Under the pieces are notes generated by a model. The model saw only the letters and a list, made by a program, of their open reading frames with translations. It searched no databases and was not told the DNA's origin. Shown here piece by piece: positions 1-8,658 of a stretch of 63,362 nt of DNA. Within the stretch, counting starts at the first letter, position 1; each line of letters opens with the position of its first letter. Both the position numbers and the translations under genes were made by a program. The stretch covers positions 1 to 63,362 of the forward strand of contig CAIMLG010000278.1 of NCBI GenBank assembly GCA_903842235.1, written 5' to 3'. Origin of the DNA: an uncultured Verrucomicrobia subdivision 3 bacterium (GTDB lineage Bacteria; Verrucomicrobiota; Verrucomicrobiia; Limisphaerales; UBA11358).

Positions 1-169
1 ACGACCGCATATGGCATATTTGCGTCAACTAAAGAAACGATTCAAAGTTGACCTGTTTTGCGGATACCAAAGCAATAGTTGCACCGCCGGATTTGAAGTT
101 GATCAGCGATGCCTCGGCTTGTTCACCGAACTGGGTATTCCATTCGGTGTTTCAATCATTATTTTCTAA
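1..169 (+). CDS. 3' end of a hypothetical protein, DUF4279-like (truncated by window edge)
   Basis: Own translation from base 2: RPHMAYLRQLKKRFKVDLFCGYQSNSCTAGFEVDQRCLGLFTELGIPFGVSIIIF*, TAA at 167-169. Lower GC than flanks. Family resemblance is from recall only. Confidence 0.5.
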   Translation, partial: RPHMAYLRQLKKRFKVDLFCGYQSNSCTAGFEVDQRCLGLFTELGIPFGVSIIIF

Positions 170-189
170 AACTCTTCAGCGCAGAAAAT

Positions 190-273
190 TTATTCCCCCT
201 CAATCGTCCCCGGCGGCTTGCTCGTAATGTCCAAGACACAACGGTTCACGCCTTTCACCTCGTTGATGATGCG
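190..273 (-). repeat. Orphan copy of the guaA 3' end (att-like direct repeat of 1020-1103)
   Basis: Encodes [27 protein letters not shown] versus guaA ...TIEWE*. 71/84 nt identical by manual alignment; only one difference changes an amino acid. Confidence 0.93.
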
Positions 274-291
274 TCCGGCGCAGGGCCAGCT

Positions 292-456
292 TCAGGCCGG
301 TTTTTCCACCACTTTGCCATCCTGCCAGACAATCAACGGCAGCTTCAGGGCGCGGTTTTGCGCCTGGACATTTTTCGCCGCGCGGCGCAGGGCGCGTTCG
401 GCCCGCAGGACAAAGGTGGGGGCCTTGGTTGATTTACGGGGGCGGTGGATTTTCAT
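292..456 (-). CDS. 54-aa basic protein, putative partner/antitoxin of the adjacent P-loop ATPase
   Basis: Below the ORF-track cutoff. MKIHRPRKSTKAPTFVLRAERALRRAAKNVQAQNRALKLPLIVWQDGKVVEKPA*. ATG overlaps the ATPase TGA (ATGA at 453-456). Confidence 0.75.
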   Translation of the reverse strand: MKIHRPRKSTKAPTFVLRAERALRRAAKNVQAQNRALKLPLIVWQDGKVVEKPA

Positions 457-1012
457 AGGCCAGTCAACTGTCGCACAGATTCAAGGTCATGGATACCAGA
501 GATGGCGAGCCGTTGTGCGGGCAGGCTGCGGCTGTCCCAGACCGCCCAGCGCGTGGTCAGCGGGAGATAATCGTCAAGCAGATGCTGCCGGCTGCGCTTG
601 AACCGGCGGCGGATGTCAGCGGCAGGGACGTGGTGGCCACCCTGCTGGACGCGCTGGCGCACCCGGGCAATTGCCTGAGCCGGACTGGAGAGCCAGAGAT
701 AATGCAATTCAACCTCATACCCGAGTTGGCGGGCCCGCTGGAACAGCCGGATGTAGGTTTGCCGCTCAGCGTGTTTTCCAGCGCAAAAGTTTCGCGGTCA
801 CTGAGGCACGCCTCAACTTGGGCGAGCAACAGCCGCGCGGCTTGCACGGCCCCGGCGCTGGGCTTGAAAGGAGAAAGTCCCCGGGCGATTTCATCGGCTT
901 TGAGAAAGCGCAGACATTTCACTTCTTTGGGCAAAAACTCGCGGGCAAAGGTGGCTTTGCCCGCGCCATTGCAGCCGGCGATGACATAAATTGTTGGAGG
1001 CCGCGCGGACAT
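453..1012 (-). pseudogene. Zeta-toxin-like/COG4185 P-loop ATPase, frameshifted
   Basis: N half (IAGCNGAGKAT, ADEIA) is in ORF 557..1012; C half (YLWL..P..AIARVRQRV..GGHHVP..DIRRRF) is in ORF 453..707. One extra A at ~758-760 joins them into ~186 aa. Walker A is degenerate (GKAT). Confidence 0.8.
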
Positions 1013-1019
1013 GGCTCAT

Positions 1020-2570
1020 TCACTCCCACTCAATGGTCCCTGGCGGCTTGCTGGTGATGTCGAGGACGCAGCGGTTCACACCTTTCACCTCATTGATGAT
1101 GCGGCTCGCCAGCTTCTCCAGCAGGTCGTAGGGCAGCTTCACCCAGTCGGCGGTCATGCCGTCCTGCGATTCCACGGCGCGGATGGCAATGGTGTATTCG
1201 TAAGTCCGTTCGTCGCCCATCACGCCCACGCTGCGCACCGGCAGCAGCACGGCAAAGCTCTGCCAGATCTTGTAATACAGCCCGCTCAACTTCATTTCCT
1301 CGACGACAATGGTGTCGGCGTTGCGCAAAATCTCGCAGCGCGCGGGCGTCACTTCGCCGAGAATGCGCACGGCGAGGCCGGGACCGGGAAACGGCTGGCG
1401 CCAGACGATGTCCTTGGGCACGCCCAGTTCCTCGCCGAGCAGCCGGACCTCGTCCTTGAACAAATTTTTCAGCGGCTCGACCAGCTTGAACTTCATTCCC
1501 TTGGGCAGGCCGCCCACGTTGTGATGGCTCTTGATGAGCGCGGCGGGATTGCCGGCAATCGGCACGGACTCGATGACGTCGGGATACAGCGTGCCCTGCG
1601 CGAGGAACTTCGCCTGGTTCGCCTTGCCCACCCGTTTCGTCGCGGCCTGAAACACGTCAATGAACGTCTTGCCGATGACTTTGCGTTTCTTTTCGGGATC
1701 GGTCACGCCCTTGAGCTTGTTTAGAAACAGCTTCGTCGCGTCCACATATTGCAGCCGGATGTTGAAGCTGCGGGCGAAAATATTCTGCACCACTTCGGCT
1801 TCGCGGGCGCGGAGCAGGCCGTTGTTCACGAAAATGCAGGTGAGCTGGTCGCCGATGGCCTGGTGCAGGAGCGCGGCCGCCACGCTGGAATCCACGCCGC
1901 CGCTCAGGCCGAGCACGACGTGTTCCGAGCCGACTTGGGCGCGGATTTCCTCGACGGCCTGCTCGATGTAATTGCGCATTGTCCAATTTTTGCCGCAGCC
2001 GCAGACGCCGTGGACGAAATTGAAAATAATTTCTTTGCCGCGCGGCGTGTGGACCACTTCGGGGTGGAATTGCAGACCGAAGAATTTCCTGGCGCGATGC
2101 TCGATGGCCGCGTATTCGGAGTTGTCCGTGGCGGCCACGGGTTTGAAGCCGTTGGGCAGCCGGGTGAGCTTGTCGCCGTGGGAATTCCACACTTGCAGCT
2201 GCTTGGGCAGCTTGGCGAACAGTTTGCAGGCACCGTCCGTGATGGTGAGCGCGCCCTTGCCGTATTCGCGTTTCTGGCCTTTCTCGACCTTGCCGCCGAG
2301 GAATTGGGCGAACAGCTGGACGCCGAAGCAGATGCCGAGGATCGGCACGCCCAGATTGAAGATGGCTTTGTCCGGCAGCGGCGCTTTGGGCGCATACACG
2401 CTGGACGGGCCGCCGGAAAGAATGATGCCGCTGGGCTTCATGGCCGCGACGGCGGCGGCGGGGGTGTTGAACGGGATGATCGTGGAATATACGTTGCCCT
2501 CGCGGACCCGCCGGGCGATGACCTGCGTGTATTGGGAACCAAAATCAAGGATGACAATTTGTTCGTTCAT
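1020..2570 (-). CDS. guaA: GMP synthase (glutamine-hydrolysing)
   Basis: [47 protein letters not shown] motifs; 516 aa. Confidence 0.98.
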
Positions 2571-2665
2571 GGTCTGACACCAAAGGCGAATTCTCGGGTG
2601 CGGCGGGAATGATTGCGAGCGAAAAATGTTTTTACCGGGGCCGGATTCGGCTAAAAAACAGCCGC

Positions 2666-4324
2666 ATGTTGAACCGTATCCGACTCTGGCTGACGACGCA
2701 TCCGCACGGGCTGCTGGTTTTGCTCACGCTGGCCTTGCTCGGGCCGTTTCTGGCCAAACCCTTCAACATTGACGATCCGTTGTTCATTTGGGCCGCCCAA
2801 CAAATTCAAGCCCACCCCGGCGATCCGTATGGTTTCGCCGTGAACTGGTATGGCCAGGTCCAGCCCATGTGGGCGGTCGCCCAAAATCCGCCGTTGGCCA
2901 GTTATTATCTGGCGGGCGCGGCGGGGGTGCTGGGGTGGAGTGAGTTCGGATTGCATTTGGCCTTCCTGCTGCCGGCCCTCGCCGTGATTTTGGGCACCTA
3001 CCGGCTGGCGGGGCGTTTTTGCCGCCGCCCCCTGCTGGCAGCGCTGGCAACCTTGTTCACGCCCGTCTTTCTGGTTTCCGCCACGACGGTCATGTGCGAT
3101 GTCCCGCTGCTGGCCTTCTGGGTGTGGGCGCTGGTTTTTTGGGTGGAAGGGCTTGCGCGTTCGGAGCCGGGCAAGCTGGCCGCGGCGGGCCTATTGCTCG
3201 GGCTGGCCGCCCTGACAAAATATTCCGGGCTGTGCTTGCTGCCGCTGCTGGGTGCCTATGCCTTGATCGAGCAACGCCGGCCCGGTTGGTGGGTGGCCAG
3301 CCTGTGCCTTCCCCTGGGTATGCTGGCGGCGTATCAGCTCCTCACGCAACGGCTCTACGGCCATGGCCTGTTGTCCGCCGCCATGAGTTATGCCGGCGAT
3401 ACCCGGAATCTTCTGGGGGTGGGCAAAATCACTGCCGCGCAAACCACCCTGGTGTTCATGGGGGGCTGTCTGGCCAGCGTGGCTGTTTTTGCGCCGTGGT
3501 TCTGGCGCTCGGCCCGGCTGATTATGATCGCCTTCGGGCTGTTTGCGGCGGGGGCGCTGGCGGGAAAATATTGGCTGGCCCGGCCCGGTCCGTGGGCGCT
3601 GGTGGAATTTCAAATGCTCTTTTGGACGCTGGGGGGAATTGGCGTGCTGGCCCTGGTCGTCACGGATGGGCTGCGGGCGCGCGATGGCCAATCGGCGCTG
3701 CTGGGGTTGTGGATCTTGGGCACGGCGATGTTTGCGGTGTTTTTCAATTGGACGGTCAATGGCCGCGTGCTCTTGCCGATGGCGCCCGCGGTGGGAATTT
3801 TGCTGGCCCGCTTCGTGGATTGGAAGCTGGCGGCCGGCCGGAAAATGTTCCCGCCCGCCGTAATCGCCGGTCTCGCCGTCAGTGCCACCTTTGCCTGGCT
3901 GGTGGCCCGGGCGGATTATCGGCTGGCCACGGCCGTCCGCGAGAGCGCCCGGCAGGTGGGTGCCTTTCCGGCCGGATCAAAGGCCGGAAAAATTTGGTTC
4001 CAAGGCCACTGGGGCTTTCAATATTACCTGGAAAAATCCGGCGCGGTGGCGGTGAACTCCGGCCCCGCCGCCGGGGCGCCCGGAGATTGGCTGGCTTTGC
4101 CCGCCAACAACGTCAATGTGCTGCCGCCGGACCCCCAATGGCGCCGCCTCCAAAACATCCGCTGCGCCGGGCCGCGCTGGTTGACCACCCTGAATGCGCA
4201 AACCGGCGCCGGGTTTTTCTTCGCGACGCTCCAAGGCCCTTTGCCTTTTGCTTTGGGTGATGTCCCCCCGGAAACGGTGACAATTTATGGCCTCCCAGCC
4301 GTCCGCCCGCCGGCCAAGCCCTGA
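2666..4324 (+). CDS. ArnT/PMT-like (GT39/GT83) membrane glycosyltransferase
   Basis: Multi-TM; N-terminal IDDPLF, NPPL..YY, LTKY motifs. Start placed at MLNR (the ORF opens at 2609). Confidence 0.75.
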
Positions 4325-4368
4325 AACGCTCAATGGGAATCGCTGATCGGGCGGCTTGATCGGGTGGC

Positions 4369-4710
4369 TTATTGTTTGACCATCTTGGCCGTTCCCGCCG
4401 TGGCGTCATACACGATCTTGGATCCAAACGGGGCCTCGGGGATTTTGCCGATGTAATTTGGCACCAGCTCCTGAAGGTCTTTCGGCAGGCGGCCCTCGCT
4501 CACTTGAAACATCTGGATGGCCTGGTTGATGTAGGAGACGTCGATGACCTTTTCCGAATATTTCTTCGCTTGCACCACCGCGCCCAGATACTGCCCCGGC
4601 GTGGTGACGACGTTGGAAACCGTGTTGGCGGCGGTGCCGGGTTTGGAGCTGTCGCCGCAGCCGGAAAGGAACGCCGTGGCGGTGGCCAGAATCAGTAGGG
4701 GGATCTTCAT
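4369..4710 (-). CDS. Hypothetical lipoprotein
   Basis: Lipobox LSGC after hydrophobic stretch; C-terminal GRLPKDLQELVPNYI resembles a pilin/GspG-like segment. Confidence 0.7.
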   Translation of the reverse strand: MKIPLLILATATAFLSGCGDSSKPGTAANTVSNVVTTPGQYLGAVVQAKKYSEKVIDVSYINQAIQMFQVSEGRLPKDLQELVPNYIGKIPEAPFGSKIVYDATAGTAKMVKQ

Positions 4711-4770
4711 GGCTTCAACTTACGCCGATTGCCGGAAAATGAAAACGGAAATTTCCCCGGCGGGGCGGGC

Positions 4771-6828
4771 TTAGCCGCCGCGGGCAACCAGCTCCCGCGC
4801 CTGCCGGATCAGGTTCAAATCCTCCGCCAGATTGCCGAAACGCAGGTTCGGCAGGCCGCTCTGCTGCTGCCCCAGCAGTTCGCCCGGCCCCCGCAGCTTC
4901 AGGTCGGCTTCGGCGATTTTGAAGCCGTCATTGGTCTCCGCCAGTATCTTCAGCCGCGACTGGGCGTCTTCATGCGGTGCGTCGGAAATCAGGATGCAAA
5001 AGCTCTTGTGCGCGCCGCGCCCGATGCGCCCGCGCAGCTGGTGCAACTGCGCCAGCCCGAAATGCTCCGCGTTCTCAATGAGCATCACCGTGGCGTTCGG
5101 CACGTCCACGCCGACTTCGATCAGCGACGTGGCCACCAGCGCCTTAATTTTATTCGCGCGAAATTCTGCCATCGTCTTTTCCTTGTCCGCCGGCTTGATC
5201 CGCCCGTGCAGCAGGCCGACCTTGCAGCCGGTGAGCGCGCGTTGCACATTTTCAAATTCCTTCGTCACCGCCTTGATGTCTTTGTCCGCCACCTCGACGC
5301 GCGGATAAACAATGTAAGCCTGCCGTCCGCCGGCAATTTTCTCGCGGATAAACTCAAACACCTTCGGCAGCTTCTCCGTCGTTCGCACAAAGGTTTTGAT
5401 CGCGCCGCGCCCGCCGGGCATTTCGTCAATCACCGACACGTCGAGATCGCCGTAAAGCGTCAGCCCGAGCGTGCGCGGGATCGGCGTGGCCGTCATCACC
5501 AGCAGATGCGGGTAATGGCCCTTGCGCACCAGCGTCTCGCGCTGCGCCACGCCGAACTTGTGCTGCTCGTCAATGATCACCAGCCCCAGCTTCGGCAGTT
5601 CCAAGCCCGCCGTGAACAGCGCGTGCGTGCCGATGAACAAGGTTGAAGGTTCGCGTTGCGCCGCGCTTTGGACTTTGGACTTTGGACTTTGGACTTCCTG
5701 CGTCTTCCGGCTACCCGTTTGCAATTCCACCTTCACGCCCAGCGGCTCCAACCAATTGGTGAAATTTCGATAATGCTGCTCCGCCAGAATTTCCGTCGGC
5801 GCCATCAGTGCCCCGTTGAACCCGCTCTCCAGCGCCATCAATGCGCTGCATGCCGCCACCGCCGTCTTGCCCGAGCCGACGTCCCCTTGCAGCAAGCGCC
5901 GCATCGGATGCGCCCCGCCCATATCGGCCCGGATTTCCTTCAGCACGTTGGCCTGCGCGGCGGTGAGCTTGAAGCCGAGCGCGGCCAGAAACGGCTTCAT
6001 CAGCCGGTTGTCGCCGCCGCACGGCAAGCCCTTCGCGCTCGCCTCAAACTTTTTCCGGCGCGCCTGGATTTGAAATTGCAGCGCCACAAATTCATCCAGC
6101 GCCAGCCGCTGCCGCGCGATTTCCGCATCCAGCAACTCCTCCGGAAAATGGATCAGGCGCACCGCATTGGCCCGCGACGGCAAATTCAGGTAGGGCGCGC
6201 AGTCCTCTGCGCGCCGCGCTGTCGCCGCCGTCGGCGCACACGAAGTGTCGCGCCCTACCTGCGGTTCCGCGATTTCCTTTTCAAACTTCTCCAGCGCCCG
6301 CCAGACCAGCGAGCGCAGCACGCGCGCCGTCAGCCCTTCCGTGAGCGGATGCACCGGCACGATGCGATTGACGTGGATGAATTCGTCGTCGCCCGGCTCC
6401 ACCAGTTCCGTTTCGGGATGCGTGAAGGTGCGCGGCTTCTTGTCATCGTCCAGCTTGCCGTAAATCAAAAATTCGCGGCCCACCGCATACCAGTCCGGCA
6501 TCCACGGCTGCGCCTGCCACCAGCGGCCATGCAGCCGCGCCGTGCCGTCGTCGAACACGCACTCGAACATCGTCCGCGTGCCTTTCTTGAAGTGCTTGGT
6601 GCCGGCGGCGATGATTTGCCCGCGTACGGTGGCGGCTTCCTTCAACTGCAAATCGCGGATCGGCAGAAATTTTCGGCGATCCTCATAGCGGCGCGGCTTG
6701 TGGAGCAGCAAATCTTCGATGGTGAAAATGTCCAGGCGCGCCAGCAGCCGGGCGCGCTCCTCGCCCACGCCCCAGACCGAGCTGACGGGCGCAGCGAGCG
6801 GGGAAACGTGATTTTCCGGCGCGGACAT
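4771..6828 (-). CDS. recG: ATP-dependent DNA helicase RecG
   Basis: QGDVGSGKT, DEQH, MTATPIPRTL, QLHQLRGRIGRG, DLKLRGPGE; start at MSAPENH. Confidence 0.96.
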   Translation of the reverse strand: MSAPENHVSPLAAPVSSVWGVGEERARLLARLDIFTIEDLLLHKPRRYEDRRKFLPIRDLQLKEAATVRGQIIAAGTKHFKKGTRTMFECVFDDGTARLHGRWWQAQPWMPDWYAVGREFLIYGKLDDDKKPRTFTHPETELVEPGDDEFIHVNRIVPVHPLTEGLTARVLRSLVWRALEKFEKEIAEPQVGRDTSCAPTAATARRAEDCAPYLNLPSRANAVRLIHFPEELLDAEIARQRLALDEFVALQFQIQARRKKFEASAKGLPCGGDNRLMKPFLAALGFKLTAAQANVLKEIRADMGGAHPMRRLLQGDVGSGKTAVAACSALMALESGFNGALMAPTEILAEQHYRNFTNWLEPLGVKVELQTGSRKTQEVQSPKSKVQSAAQREPSTLFIGTHALFTAGLELPKLGLVIIDEQHKFGVAQRETLVRKGHYPHLLVMTATPIPRTLGLTLYGDLDVSVIDEMPGGRGAIKTFVRTTEKLPKVFEFIREKIAGGRQAYIVYPRVEVADKDIKAVTKEFENVQRALTGCKVGLLHGRIKPADKEKTMAEFRANKIKALVATSLIEVGVDVPNATVMLIENAEHFGLAQLHQLRGRIGRGAHKSFCILISDAPHEDAQSRLKILAETNDGFKIAEADLKLRGPGELLGQQQSGLPNLRFGNLAEDLNLIRQARELVARGG
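5666..5696. repeat. Heptamer tandem repeat (CTTTGGA)x4 inside recG
   Basis: Read directly; translated as EVQSPKSKVQS. Confidence 0.9.
6187..6261. repeat. REP-doublet (REPIN-like) element in frame within recG
   Basis: 13-bp perfect terminal inverted repeat CAGGTAGGGCGCG/CGCGCCCTACCTG, two internal hairpins, 75 bp = 25 codons. Confidence 0.88.
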
Positions 6829-6909
6829 GGCCCGACGATACAAACCGGTGGAGGCGCCTTCAATGGGAAACAGACTGGCCAAGGGAAAAGCGGCATGGCT
6901 GGCGCGGAG

Positions 6910-7025
6910 CGTTTGGACTGCGTGTGCTTCAGCCCCGCTATATTCCCCGGTGCTGCGAGGGTTGCCGTGAGTGTGGTTGCGTCCCGCGATGTGAAAGCGG
7001 CGATGAATCGCACGCAGTCCAAACG
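6910..7025. repeat. Intergenic REP-like doublet
   Basis: 15-bp perfect inverted repeat CGTTTGGACTGCGTG (6910-6924) / CACGCAGTCCAAACG (7011-7025). Confidence 0.8.
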
Positions 7026-7120
7026 GTGGCGCGTGGTTCGTGCGCCAAGACGCGTCCGCTGATTGGTGATTTGTGAGCGGAGATGCCACTCGCTTCAAAA
7101 ATGATAATTCGTCAAAAAAA

Positions 7121-7175
7121 TTGAAAAACTCAATTGACGAATTGAATAAATCAATATAAAACGTGAGTAAATCAA
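7121..7175 (+). promoter_or_regulatory. Triple operator TTGA-N5-TCAA with 21-bp period, overlapping a probable promoter
   Basis: TTGAaaaacTCAA 7121-7133, TTGAataaaTCAA 7142-7154, GTGAgtaaaTCAA 7163-7175; TTGACG at 7134; AT-rich patch. Confidence 0.75.
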
Positions 7176-7555
7176 TGACCAAGCCCGGAACCAACGCCAA
7201 AAAGCTGATTACGCGCTGCCCGTTTTGCGGCGATCAATTGGGCATTACCCGGCTTTCCTGCTGCGGCTGCAACACGCAGATTGATTCCCAACTGGAGATT
7301 CCGCTGTTCTTCCGCCTGCCGCCGGATTTGCAGGAGTTCGTCATGGTGTTTCTGCGTTGTCAGGGAAAAATCCGCGACGTGGAAAAGGAACTGGGCATTT
7401 CCTACCCGACGGTTTGCAAGCGGCTCGACCTCGTGAACGAACTGCTCGGCAACACCAGCACGCCGGTGCGGCGCTCGCAAATTTTGGAACAGCTCGAACG
7501 CGGTGAAATCAATGTCTCAGAAGCCACTCAACTATTGAAAGAAAGATCATTATGA
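7175..7555 (+). CDS. DUF2089-family Zn-ribbon/HTH protein with C-terminal SHOCT-like motif
   Basis: CPFCG..LSCCGC; VEKELGISYPTV..RLD; ILEQLERGEINVSEATQLL. Confidence 0.85.
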   Translation: MTKPGTNAKKLITRCPFCGDQLGITRLSCCGCNTQIDSQLEIPLFFRLPPDLQEFVMVFLRCQGKIRDVEKELGISYPTVCKRLDLVNELLGNTSTPVRRSQILEQLERGEINVSEATQLLKERSL

Positions 7556-8658
7556 ACGTCATGTTTGCTCCAATCGTCCCGCTACTCGGCATAGTTGCTG
7601 TAGTGGCGTGGATTTTCTACCGCCGCTATACCGGCCTGACTCGTTGGCAATCAGCCCTGTTGAGCATGTTGGCCGCCGGACTCGGTATCGCATTGGCGGC
7701 CTATGCGGACAATATATTTCAACGCGGCTCTGAATGGAGTAATCGTCGTGATGCCGACGAGCCAGTTTTGATTTGCTTCTCTGTGTTGCTGCCGCTGCTG
7801 GCGGTTCCTTTTGTTGTCCGGCTTTATCGCAAGTGGATTGGCGGCCATTTGACCGACGCGGAAAAACTGCCCGGCGCGGCAGGCGTGCGGGCGTGGCTCG
7901 GCGTGGGCAATATCATCTGCGCGAGCCTGATTCCCATTTGCGTCTGGCAGGTTTTTGGCTATTCACCCATTGGCTTTTGGGCGCTCACTTTTGGATTATT
8001 GCTCGCTTATCCGTTGCTCAACATGGCTTTGCAATCGGCCCAGCCCGCGCCGGTGGCTCCGACCGAAGATTTGTCCAACGAGCGGGAAAAGGTTTTGCAA
8101 CTGCTCGAAGCCGGGAAAATCAGTGCCGCCGACAGCGCGGAGCTTTTGAACGCGCTCGCCCACAGCACGCCGACGCCGACGCCCAAGCCCGCCGCTGAAA
8201 TCAATCCGCCGCGCAAGCTGATTCTGATCGGAGCCGCCATCCTGCTGATCGGGTTTTTCCTGCCGTGGTTTGCCATCAATCCCAACGCTGAAGCCAACGC
8301 TGAGTTCGCCCATTTTCAGCAAAATATGAAGCAGATGATGCCGGGGAATGCCATGCCACAAATGAACCTTTCCCTGCCGAATACCACCGTGCAAATCCAT
8401 GCCGGTGATTTGGCCCACGGTTTGGGCTGGTGGATTCTAGCACTGGGGATCAGTGCCGCCGTGCTGCCATTCTTTGCGACCACGCTGGAATCGTCCCTGC
8501 AGAAAAAAATTATTCTGGCGGCGCTGGGCATCGGCGCAATTCTCCTGATCTATCTTTTGTCCGACGCCATCCGGTATGTCAGTTTCGGCATCATTTTGGC
8601 CCTGGCCGGCTACGCGCTGGAATTTGTGGGCACGTTCAAGGAACGGCCGACGCGGTAA
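7552..8658 (+). CDS. Multi-pass membrane protein with internal SHOCT-like motif
   Basis: ATGA overlap with upstream gene; many TM helices; EREKVLQLLEAGKISAADSAELLNAL. Confidence 0.8.
   Translation: MNVMFAPIVPLLGIVAVVAWIFYRRYTGLTRWQSALLSMLAAGLGIALAAYADNIFQRGSEWSNRRDADEPVLICFSVLLPLLAVPFVVRLYRKWIGGHLTDAEKLPGAAGVRAWLGVGNIICASLIPICVWQVFGYSPIGFWALTFGLLLAYPLLNMALQSAQPAPVAPTEDLSNEREKVLQLLEAGKISAADSAELLNALAHSTPTPTPKPAAEINPPRKLILIGAAILLIGFFLPWFAINPNAEANAEFAHFQQNMKQMMPGNAMPQMNLSLPNTTVQIHAGDLAHGLGWWILALGISAAVLPFFATTLESSLQKKIILAALGIGAILLIYLLSDAIRYVSFGIILALAGYALEFVGTFKERPTR

Follow-up and report, generated by a model that had tools for sequence, protein, structure and literature searches.

The stretch of DNA investigated here, called the window, comprises the first 63,362 bases of contig C278 from the draft genome G000 of an uncultured Verrucomicrobia subdivision 3 bacterium (354 contigs, 4.3% contamination; designations in G, C and L denote genomes, contigs and loci). 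Close to its left end lies an intact guaA gene encoding GMP synthase, with the nearest relative in G009 (91% amino acid (aa) identity). Directly past the guaA stop codon follow a small two-gene cassette, a displaced copy of the guaA 3' end and part of a second cassette (Table 1). Such gene ends are here called tails, the working end being tail A and displaced copies being spare tails.

Table 1 Features of the guaA locus. Positions refer to the window unless contig C150 is named.
Feature	Position	Strand	Basis
guaA (GMP synthase), intact, 516 aa, host gene with its 3' end as landing place	2570..1020	-	GATase 3.4e-51, GMP_synt_C 1.1e-44
Tail A, working guaA end, last 27 codons and TGA	1020..1103	-	alignment
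Spacer from guaA stop to ATPase ATG, 7 nucleotides (nt)	1013..1019	-	sequence
Zeta-toxin-like P-loop ATPase gene, broken by loss of 1 nt	453..1012	-	frame 1 open reading frame (ORF) 1012..557; frame 2 752..453
Frameshift site, GGCAAACCTAC; intact relatives encode G-K-T-Y there, one A of an A-run missing	745..755	-	comparison with relatives
54-aa basic partner gene, presumed antitoxin	292..456	-	start overlaps ATPase stop (ATGA)
Spacer from partner stop to tail B, 18 nt	274..291	-	sequence
Tail B, displaced, non-translated guaA end copy, 27 codons, W>G, TAA	190..273	-	alignment
DUF4279 gene, C-terminal 55 codons, cassette 2, low GC, cut by contig start	2..169	+ (opposite to guaA)	P0122: PF14106 7.2e-11
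Tail C, 42-nt guaA end copy	C150 311-352		identical to last 42 nt of tail B, including Gly codon and TAA

Tails A and B align without gaps and in the same orientation, with 71 of 84 nt identical. The 13 differences comprise 11 in 10 synonymous codons, one change of a conserved tryptophan to glycine (TGG>GGG) and one exchange of stop codon (TGA/TAA). As random single changes in these codons are expected to be silent in 22% of cases, the probability of at least 11 silent changes among 12 is about 6e-7, and the pattern is thus not that of a decaying copy. Both tails look like ends that evolved in working guaA genes, from different lineages. Assembled contigs from four public runs (lake-water and peat metagenomes, source shares of at most 0.22) contained ends resembling tail B that, in other organisms, are joined straight to a guaA body (joints 270/273 to 1111-1142). 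The longest exact run common to tails A and B is 11 nt, which makes a misassembly driven by the repeat unlikely. An earlier, sequence-only reading of this DNA had reported the 84-nt repeat with its 13 differences, the spacing of the genes between the copies and a low-GC gene beyond the repeat, and all three descriptions were accurate (window 1-189 has a GC content of 42.9% vs 59.6% for the genome). Its suggestion that both tails once served as functional guaA termini in different hosts gained support from the almost entirely silent differences and from the metagenome contigs.

The genes behind guaA are tightly packed, and the same reading had pictured them as minimal units lacking a promoter. 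In agreement, no sigma-70-like promoter was found in window 1-2700, this being a weak test for the phylum, and no terminator-like site was found between guaA and the ATPase gene. Given the packing and the lack of such sites in these searches, expression of the cargo by read-through from guaA is plausible. A GGGAG motif within the last guaA codons, about 10 nt before the ATPase ATG, is by eye a possible ribosome-binding site. Within the ATPase gene, the part coding for the P-loop contains a terminator-like hairpin with a T-run (window 940-965, minus strand), probably a chance match. Rfam gave no match in window 1-3000.

In the ATPase gene the reading frame switches near position 750, with 1012 to about 750 read in one frame and about 752 to 453 in another. 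Intact relatives have 186 aa with Zeta_toxin and AAA_33 domains and match its first 88 residues at 80–93% identity; they read ...SGKTYIRLFQ... where the window copy is one A short in an A-run. The frameshift may be a real mutation or a sequencing error, and the metagenome contigs examined do not cover the stretch 719-763. One intact relative (P0003, 186 aa), 93% identical to the window ATPase over residues 1-88, matched Zeta_toxin (PF06414) at 1.5e-8 (34.8 bits, cut-off 22.3) and AAA_33 at 2.1e-10; the match of the window ATPase itself, made from the frameshifted copy, was to AAA_33 at 0.006 only. A partner of 52–61 aa with the same ATGA overlap was present in 27 of 34 related loci, and the ATPase and the 54-aa ORF are presumed to form a type II toxin-antitoxin-like pair. 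No known family was found for the partner, with PADLOC, NCBIfam and Atlas giving nothing useful for the cargo, and a PDB sequence search returned P-loop noise only. The GC content of this first cassette is 62.1%, i.e. not low, and exact 151-nt contigs of it were found in two public runs. Toxin-like cassette genes are often broken elsewhere as well: the ATPase frame is open for 64 codons in L103 and for 56 in L121, and a nucleotidyltransferase-like gene is frameshifted in G121 (L056), paralleling the frameshift in the window.

The second cassette is cut by the start of C278. Compared with a 146-aa relative, residues 92-146 of its DUF4279 gene are encoded at window 2..166 (plus strand) and residues 1-68 on contig C150 of the same genome at 3..206 (minus strand), leaving about 23 codons (~70 nt) missing between the contigs; the GC content of the gene is 43–48%. 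C150 also carries a third tail, tail C, and, at 8189-8605, a conserved 139-aa convergent gene that follows guaA in G003, G008, G011 and G024. The same tail variant, the split DUF4279 gene and the conserved convergent gene together identify C150 as the true neighbour, its reverse complement adjoining the window on the left. The order of the locus accordingly reads guaA with tail A, ATPase and partner, tail B, DUF4279 gene, tail C and the old downstream flank. A stack of cassettes at guaA had been anticipated by the sequence-only reading, and this is what emerged, with the third tail bounding a second cassette and relatives holding one to two cassettes with differing cargo at the same place.

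Two further features of C150 were noted. A repeated element of about 70 nt adjoins tail C (L001, 227-295 and 965-1036, the copies being 94% and 92% identical), and a similar element, recognized by eye, follows the spare guaA tail of G003 (L037, ~1000-1080); it may be of the REP (repetitive extragenic palindromic) or MITE (miniature inverted-repeat transposable element) kind. Genes spanning about 7.8 kb (353-8188) separate tail C from the conserved convergent gene and form a further insertion without a guaA tail; by eye their products are three proteins resembling glycoside hydrolases, one of SRPBCC-like type and a membrane protein. Names assigned by eye only in this work are YjbQ-like, glycoside hydrolase and SRPBCC (C150), Wzz/GumC-like (G069) and IS200/RAYT-like (C234).

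Recurrence of the arrangement was examined with a 39-nt degenerate guaA tail pattern (at most three mismatches) in 163 genomes of the genus and a draw of 401 genomes of the order; these include the unpublished G117 and G466, on neither of which any claim depends. The pattern was found in 150 of the genus genomes, where the reversed pattern gave 0 matches, and in 343 of the order genomes. At least nine genus genomes (G000, G003, G005, G008, G042, G054, G069, G110 and G121) carry two tails on the same contig and strand, 560–960 nt apart, and at least eight further order genomes from six families (G187, G213, G234, G259, G392, G428, G449 and G524) carry two to three tails on one contig, 83–1209 nt apart. 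Not counted were G170 (two matches, with positions not among the matches listed), G077, G119, G120 and G084 (doubles on two contigs that represent second full guaA alleles), and a second tail of G009 situated at the end of contig C153, the guaA site of that genome being empty. Among the matches listed (150 genus and 343 order genomes), no same-contig tail pair lies more than 1209 nt apart, a search that islands split between contigs would escape. At least 17 genomes, G000 included, thus carry tail-flanked units at guaA of 0.5–1.2 kb, with one to two cassettes each, filled by cargo ORFs; the gaps around the cargo are 0–45 nt on the left side and 0–20 nt on the right.

The cargo differs between genomes and is frequently of toxin-antitoxin type. 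A HicB-like gene and HicA (PF07927, 5e-18) lie between the guaA tails of G005 and G428. At the same place G259 has a different Hic-like set, G213 an 81-aa gene with a PIN gene (9e-6), and G234 an addiction antidote with a Gp49-type (HigB-like) killer, on the opposite strand. A nucleotidyltransferase-like pair, termed type A, is found in G003, G054, G213 and G428 (weak DUF2204 match, 7.6e-4) and a related pair, type B, in G008, G042 and G121; a pair of 59 and 81 aa occurs in G234 and G524, and single-gene cargo in G069, G110, G524 and G187. Broken cargo copies are present in G121 and G259. The order of cassettes is shuffled: the type A pair stands alone in G003 and G054, before HicBA in G428 and before the PIN pair in G213, and the 59+81 pair takes the first place in G234 but the second in G524. 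Cassette type is also discordant with the guaA tree, G003/G042 and G054/G121 being sisters, yet G003 and G054 hold type A and G042 and G121 type B.

Clean empty and occupied sites were directly observed. G016 (empty) and G110 (occupied) are identical at 144 of 149 positions of the guaA end and 877 of 995 of the flank, and the site is empty in G009 and G024 vs occupied in G003 and G008. In both comparisons (G110/G016; G003/G008 vs G009/G024) the repeated tail is single-copy at the empty site, as in insertion with long target duplication. Two loci may represent emptied cassettes or precursors: G018 (L044) has a 29-nt partial tail copy 27 nt past the guaA stop with nothing between, and G392 (L074) has a full spare tail at the guaA stop, broken by a 21-nt hairpin-like insert and followed by a hicB leader. 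In G004 (L051) guaA matches in three pieces in different frames, reflecting a broken gene or assembly errors. Two candidate explanations for the tail sequences were dropped. Homogenisation of the guaA 3' end by gene flow would raise identity at four-fold sites towards the end, where the rise from 50–66% along the gene to 65–71% in the last 80 codons was too mild, and a G029-like donor of tail A was taken as coincidence, since a 39-mer is identical there, the rest of guaA is 79% identical and no cassette is present.

The edges of the tails proved informative on how the unit is built. Every spare guaA tail extends to the stop codon, and its 5' edge tracks the preceding cargo: 57–60 nt after type A (four genomes), 92–111 nt after HicBA, 96–105 nt after the 59+81 pair, 84 nt after the ATPase pair and 36–42 nt after single genes. 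Overall the copies measure 27, 36, 42, 57–60, ~63, 84, 92–111 and >120 nt, with no fixed repeat length, and the same cargo keeps the same tail edge across families and array positions. A 45-nt hicB leader starts directly past the preceding stop in G005, G428 and G392. The cargo-linked edge and the position of the leader define the cassette as leader, cargo and tail, in that order. The sequence-only reading had placed the tail in front of its cargo, and this has to be reversed, as the spare tail that stays with a cargo type is on its distal side. In G428, G213 (three TAA stops), G449, G524, G187 and G234 the last ~36 nt of all tails in a genome carry the same host-specific silent variants; in G000 and G392 the copies differ strongly but silently, and near-identical repeats surround old cargo in G005 and G428. 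Crossover or conversion inside the tail would explain a cargo-linked 5' edge together with a host-specific last ~36 nt, with no need for a fixed-site enzyme.

The same architecture was found behind other genes. Two scans of the whole of G000 sought ends of long ORFs repeated downstream. The first missed the guaA pair itself; the second reduced 5187 frames to 48 matches, most of them tandem paralogues or intra-protein repeats, of which five host genes were kept (reversed control at most 17.5, against scores of 43–55 for matches). In a MurA/EPSP-family gene, tails of 71 nt surround HicA (8.7e-11) and HicB (1.8e-11), the two copies having six differences, all silent and clustered in the 5' half of the repeat. 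A short-chain dehydrogenase (SDR) gene has 47-nt tails around DUF433 (2.7e-17) and a weak PIN-like match, sufBD has 60-nt tails around ORFs of 164 and 67 aa, and pheS has 76-nt tails around a 95-aa ORF. Two other regions of G000 were set apart: on contig C234 (~7539-7994, minus strand) an IS200/RAYT-like 151-aa ORF (by eye) between REP-like repeats appeared as a false gene tail in the scan, and on contig C10 (L090, minus-strand scan coordinates 6205-7461) a HicA/HicB-like pair (by eye) lies between simple repeats of GAGACC/GAAACC type rather than gene tails.

For the ATPase pair, 80 loci from named Verrucomicrobiota assemblies were surveyed (titles include Limisphaerales, Pedosphaera, Chthoniobacterales, Luteolibacter, Prosthecobacter, Akkermansiaceae and Opitutaceae), of which 78 had enough flank. 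The pair was flanked by a repeated upstream gene end (32–198 nt) in 27 of the 78, the stretch just before the ATPase start recurring just past the partner gene. A reversed control gave 0 of 78 (maximum score 14); it replaced a cross-locus shuffle control that was unclean, since some loci have a host gene in common and 8 of 234 pairs therefore reached a score of 24 or more. The host genes were ThiC, class-I Glu/Gln-tRNA synthetase, IlvD/Edd, Asn-synthase-like, ArgG and 3-keto-disaccharide hydrolases, and guaA was the host in 0 of the 80 fetched loci. At the tRNA-synthetase, IlvD, GuaA and three ThiC loci the ATPase ATG lies 0–7 nt past the host stop, with the partner stop 0–20 nt before the repeat. 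The duplicated length differs among five ThiC loci (115–213 nt), and over all loci repeats span 27–213 nt. In several loci both copies look like working alleles, five being silent-biased (silent/replacement codons 20/4, 7/1, 6/1, 6/1 and 7/2, compared with 11/1 for guaA here). When the second tails of different genomes were clustered for ThiC, tRNA synthetase and IlvD, the groups spoke neither clearly for nor clearly against a spare tail that travels with the cargo. The idea of an attachment site specific to guaA, part of the sequence-only reading, could therefore not be upheld: in G000 at least four further genes are followed by such cassettes, as are at least six elsewhere, each gene with its own tail duplicated.

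G000 holds at least nine tyrosine recombinase genes, and of the 14 matches to the family (PF00589) in this genome none is on C278 (63 kb) or C150 (26 kb). In relatives, none was found within 32 kb of guaA in G003, where the nearest is a fragment, within 780 kb in G213, or on the guaA contigs of G428, G005 and G234; serine and other recombinase classes were not part of this search. Both strands of tails A and B folded no better than shuffles when attC-like folding was assessed (z +0.98, +1.19, +0.27 and -0.10). With tails that do not fold and no tyrosine recombinase on C278, on C150 or close to guaA in the five relatives, an integron-like mechanism, as had been suggested from the letters alone, found no support. 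The resemblance to integron arrays is in form only: promoterless, tightly packed cassettes of one to two genes in one orientation, each followed by its own repeat of variable length, with frequent toxin-antitoxin cassettes and the same cassettes in shuffled order. The guaA cassettes on the other hand have no intI, attI or attC-like folded site, and their repeat is the coding end of a housekeeping gene that varies by locus.

Comparable arrangements are known from other systems. Cis-mobilizable elements (CIMEs) are integrase-less stretches of DNA between two attachment-site copies that duplicate a gene 3' end, and can form tandem arrays, e.g. at the ICESt1/ICESt3 site of Streptococcus thermophilus; they derive from and depend on the site-specific integrase of a cognate element with a fixed core. 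The guaA cassettes are likewise integrase-less, bounded by gene 3' end copies and in tandem at one site, but the searches revealed no cognate element, the gene ends involved are numerous and unrelated, and the repeat length is variable. In Rhs, contact-dependent inhibition (CDI) and type VI secretion system (T6SS) toxin loci, a new 3' gene end arrives with its protective partner by recombination in the conserved part of the gene, and arrays build up. The old end is pushed downstream as a non-translated relic (an orphan module), the displaced piece being a functional toxin tip, so that the product changes. Persistence of a displaced old end downstream and the arrays are shared features, whereas at guaA the protein keeps its end and the cargo forms an operon of its own. 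Insertion with long target duplication was reportedly described for restriction-modification (R-M) gene complexes by Nobusato et al. in 2000. In the part of Furuta et al. 2010 (PMC2853133) used here, such insertions of R-M genes lack a mobility gene and have repeats >30 bp that vary in length and in some cases overlap gene ends; they occur mostly in naturally competent species, and the mechanism is left unexplained there, although a property such as double-strand breakage is suggested. Compared with that account, the present cassettes share an addiction-type unit, long and variable direct repeats >30 bp, a single copy at the empty site, an insert below 20 kb (here 0.5–1.2 kb) with no tyrosine integrase (PF00589) found, and some repeats overlapping the 3' end of a neighbouring gene. 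They differ in that the cargo consists of toxin-antitoxin-like pairs and small genes (HicA, PIN, Gp49/antidote, Zeta_toxin-family), the insert begins where a conserved gene stops and has the orientation of that gene, silent changes are often all that distinguishes the copies, i.e. as foreign vs native alleles, at most two cassettes are stacked, and the same cargo occurs at the same and at different genes across the phylum. Since the cargo is not an R-M system, we do not count the guaA cassettes among the insertions with long target duplication proper and regard them as a variant. By analogy, small addiction-type pairs at conserved gene 3' ends with a long, variable target duplication would be the toxin-antitoxin counterpart of the R-M insertions.

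The explanation that we propose, with about even confidence, is that integrase-less minicassettes settled behind the guaA stop codon as a local case of a habit found throughout the Verrucomicrobiota and later spread by recombination between tails. In the founding step, a rare event of unexplained nature would place a promoterless addiction pair at a stop codon together with a duplicated tail. Gain, loss, exchange and stacking would subsequently proceed by homologous recombination of the host, with the gene body as the long arm and the spare tail as a short, portable arm; alternatively, a circle excised tail-by-tail could re-enter via a single crossover. A cassette could thereby enter other genomes whatever sequence follows the host gene, and its promoterless cargo would be expressed by read-through and translational coupling from the housekeeping gene. 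As direct repeats invite deletion, non-addictive inserts would be short-lived and mainly addictive cargo would survive, which would explain the bias towards toxin-antitoxin pairs.

Several points weigh against this explanation. In G011 (L038, 202-801 in guaA orientation) a low-GC gene for a 199-aa membrane protein lies between guaA and the conserved convergent gene with no tail copy, and the guaA site is thus also an ordinary variable spot. One cargo type is 76–85% identical between genomes at the nucleotide level, like guaA itself (79–84%), so the cassettes appear old and show nothing that would indicate recent transfer; ancient vertical descent and numerous losses could conceivably account for their distribution. 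The W>G change common to tails B and C requires gene conversion or a particular order of events. In 17 ungapped ATPase loci the copies differ at 77 silent and 55 replacement codons, and in many loci the second copy is plainly in decay. None of the assembled contigs examined from the public runs spans a tail, the contig gap or a circle junction, and no recombination event was observed. Homologous recombination, moreover, cannot explain how one cassette family reached at least seven different genes, and leaves unexplained both the ATG 0–7 nt past the host stop at four genes and the differing duplication lengths at the five ThiC loci. The multiple host genes, precise junctions and length variation at ThiC call for a separate founding mechanism, and a dedicated process is for this reason kept in play.

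Such a process would itself create the long target duplication at gene ends, for example through staggered breaks that are filled in or through replicative template switching where a transcribed gene ends, leaving homologous recombination a secondary role. The authors on the R-M insertions likewise left such a process open. We consider it rather unlikely as the full account. It would accommodate one cassette family at at least seven unrelated gene ends, ORF-precise junctions at tRNA-synthetase, ThiC, IlvD and GuaA genes, the unequal duplications at ThiC and the near-identical repeats around old cargo in G005 and G428, and it is in line with the double-strand breakage proposed in the part of Furuta et al. 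(PMC2853133) cited above. No candidate enzyme was found, however, and the cargo types are unrelated (RNases, kinase-like ATPase, nucleotidyltransferase-like), so the cassette cannot encode a dedicated insertion enzyme; furthermore, silent-only differences between copies in several loci point to tails from different lineages, unlike a simple duplication in situ. A tyrosine integrase specific for guaA and encoded elsewhere might instead move the cassettes in trans as att-flanked, integrase-less elements of the CIME or CR2-sul2 kind, stacked by accretion. The guaA 3' end is a known attachment site: as far as the cited portion of the GIsul2 paper (PMC9376610) describes it, GIsul2 is a 15-kb island at this gene end with int next to guaA, att of ~19 bp and an 8-bp core, GAGTGGGA, and its Int also mobilises a CR2-sul2 unit that lies between att copies without an integrase of its own. 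The core corresponds to the last codons of the tails and stands at the end of every guaA tail here, the cassettes start right past the stop, and G000 has at least nine tyrosine recombinase genes. The bases just past GAGTGGGA track the following cargo, as the HicB leader shows. Compared with GIsul2 as described there, no int lies next to guaA in the present loci, the units measure 0.5–1.2 kb and the guaA repeats 27–111 nt. An integrase acting in trans is nevertheless unlikely. The same architecture at at least four other G000 genes and at least six elsewhere involves unrelated tail sequences, and the repeats range from 27 to 213 nt. That a dozen unrelated gene ends should each have a site-specific enzyme of their own is itself unlikely. 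Among the matches listed for the 150 genus and 343 order genomes, no integrase-bearing island with a guaA tail was seen (tail pairs at most 1209 nt apart), and no tyrosine recombinase was found near guaA in six genomes.

Islands that bring a replacement gene end are classical, and each cassette could be the last remnant of a large, decayed guaA island whose toxin-antitoxin pair survived as the addictive part. Toxin-antitoxin pairs are common in islands and several cassette genes are broken, in keeping with decay. We find this improbable: the at least 17 genomes show units of 0.5–1.2 kb only, with no intermediate or intact island among the matches listed, the packing (0–45 nt left, 0–20 nt right) is too tight for random deletion, and the same cargo with the same tail edge recurs in different families and array positions. 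An assembly artefact, in which the start of the window would be a chimera of guaA ends from two strains in a metagenome bin, might be suspected from the 354 contigs and 4.3% contamination of G000, a contig that ends 189 nt beyond tail B, and several other bins with two guaA alleles. It is very improbable, as tails A and B have no exact common run above 11 nt, two public runs contain 151-nt contigs that match the cassette exactly, and the architecture is present in many independent assemblies, among them contigs of 2.47 Mb (G213), 885 kb (L099) and 648 kb (L094).

According to the part of a 2009 review (PMC2654758) drawn on here, chromosomal toxin-antitoxin pairs are highly mobile and their fixation is not understood. 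The loci described above carry a countable signature, in which cargo sits at a stop codon, a duplicated gene tail comes after the cargo and no tyrosine recombinase was found nearby; it is present at guaA in at least 17 genomes, and one putative toxin family shows it at at least seven housekeeping genes across the phylum. A literature search, from which most subscription journals lay outside and which is not proof of absence, found no paper describing tail-flanked insertion for toxin-antitoxin pairs, and more cases at gene ends may be contained in the supplementary tables of Furuta et al. 2010. The signature lets annotators recognize displaced gene ends, and the mechanism is testable with simple constructs. 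It also links toxin-antitoxin pairs to R-M insertions with long target duplication, which suggests a shared property of addiction modules. More tentatively, conserved 3' ends of housekeeping genes could be universal docking sequences for integrase-less minicassettes, making the cargo with its spare tail portable into every genome that has the gene in question, stackable into integron-like arrays and open to shuffling or loss by tail-to-tail recombination. This would be a main, hitherto undescribed route for toxin-antitoxin pairs, and may have been founded by an insertion process that acts close to stop codons and makes long target duplications.

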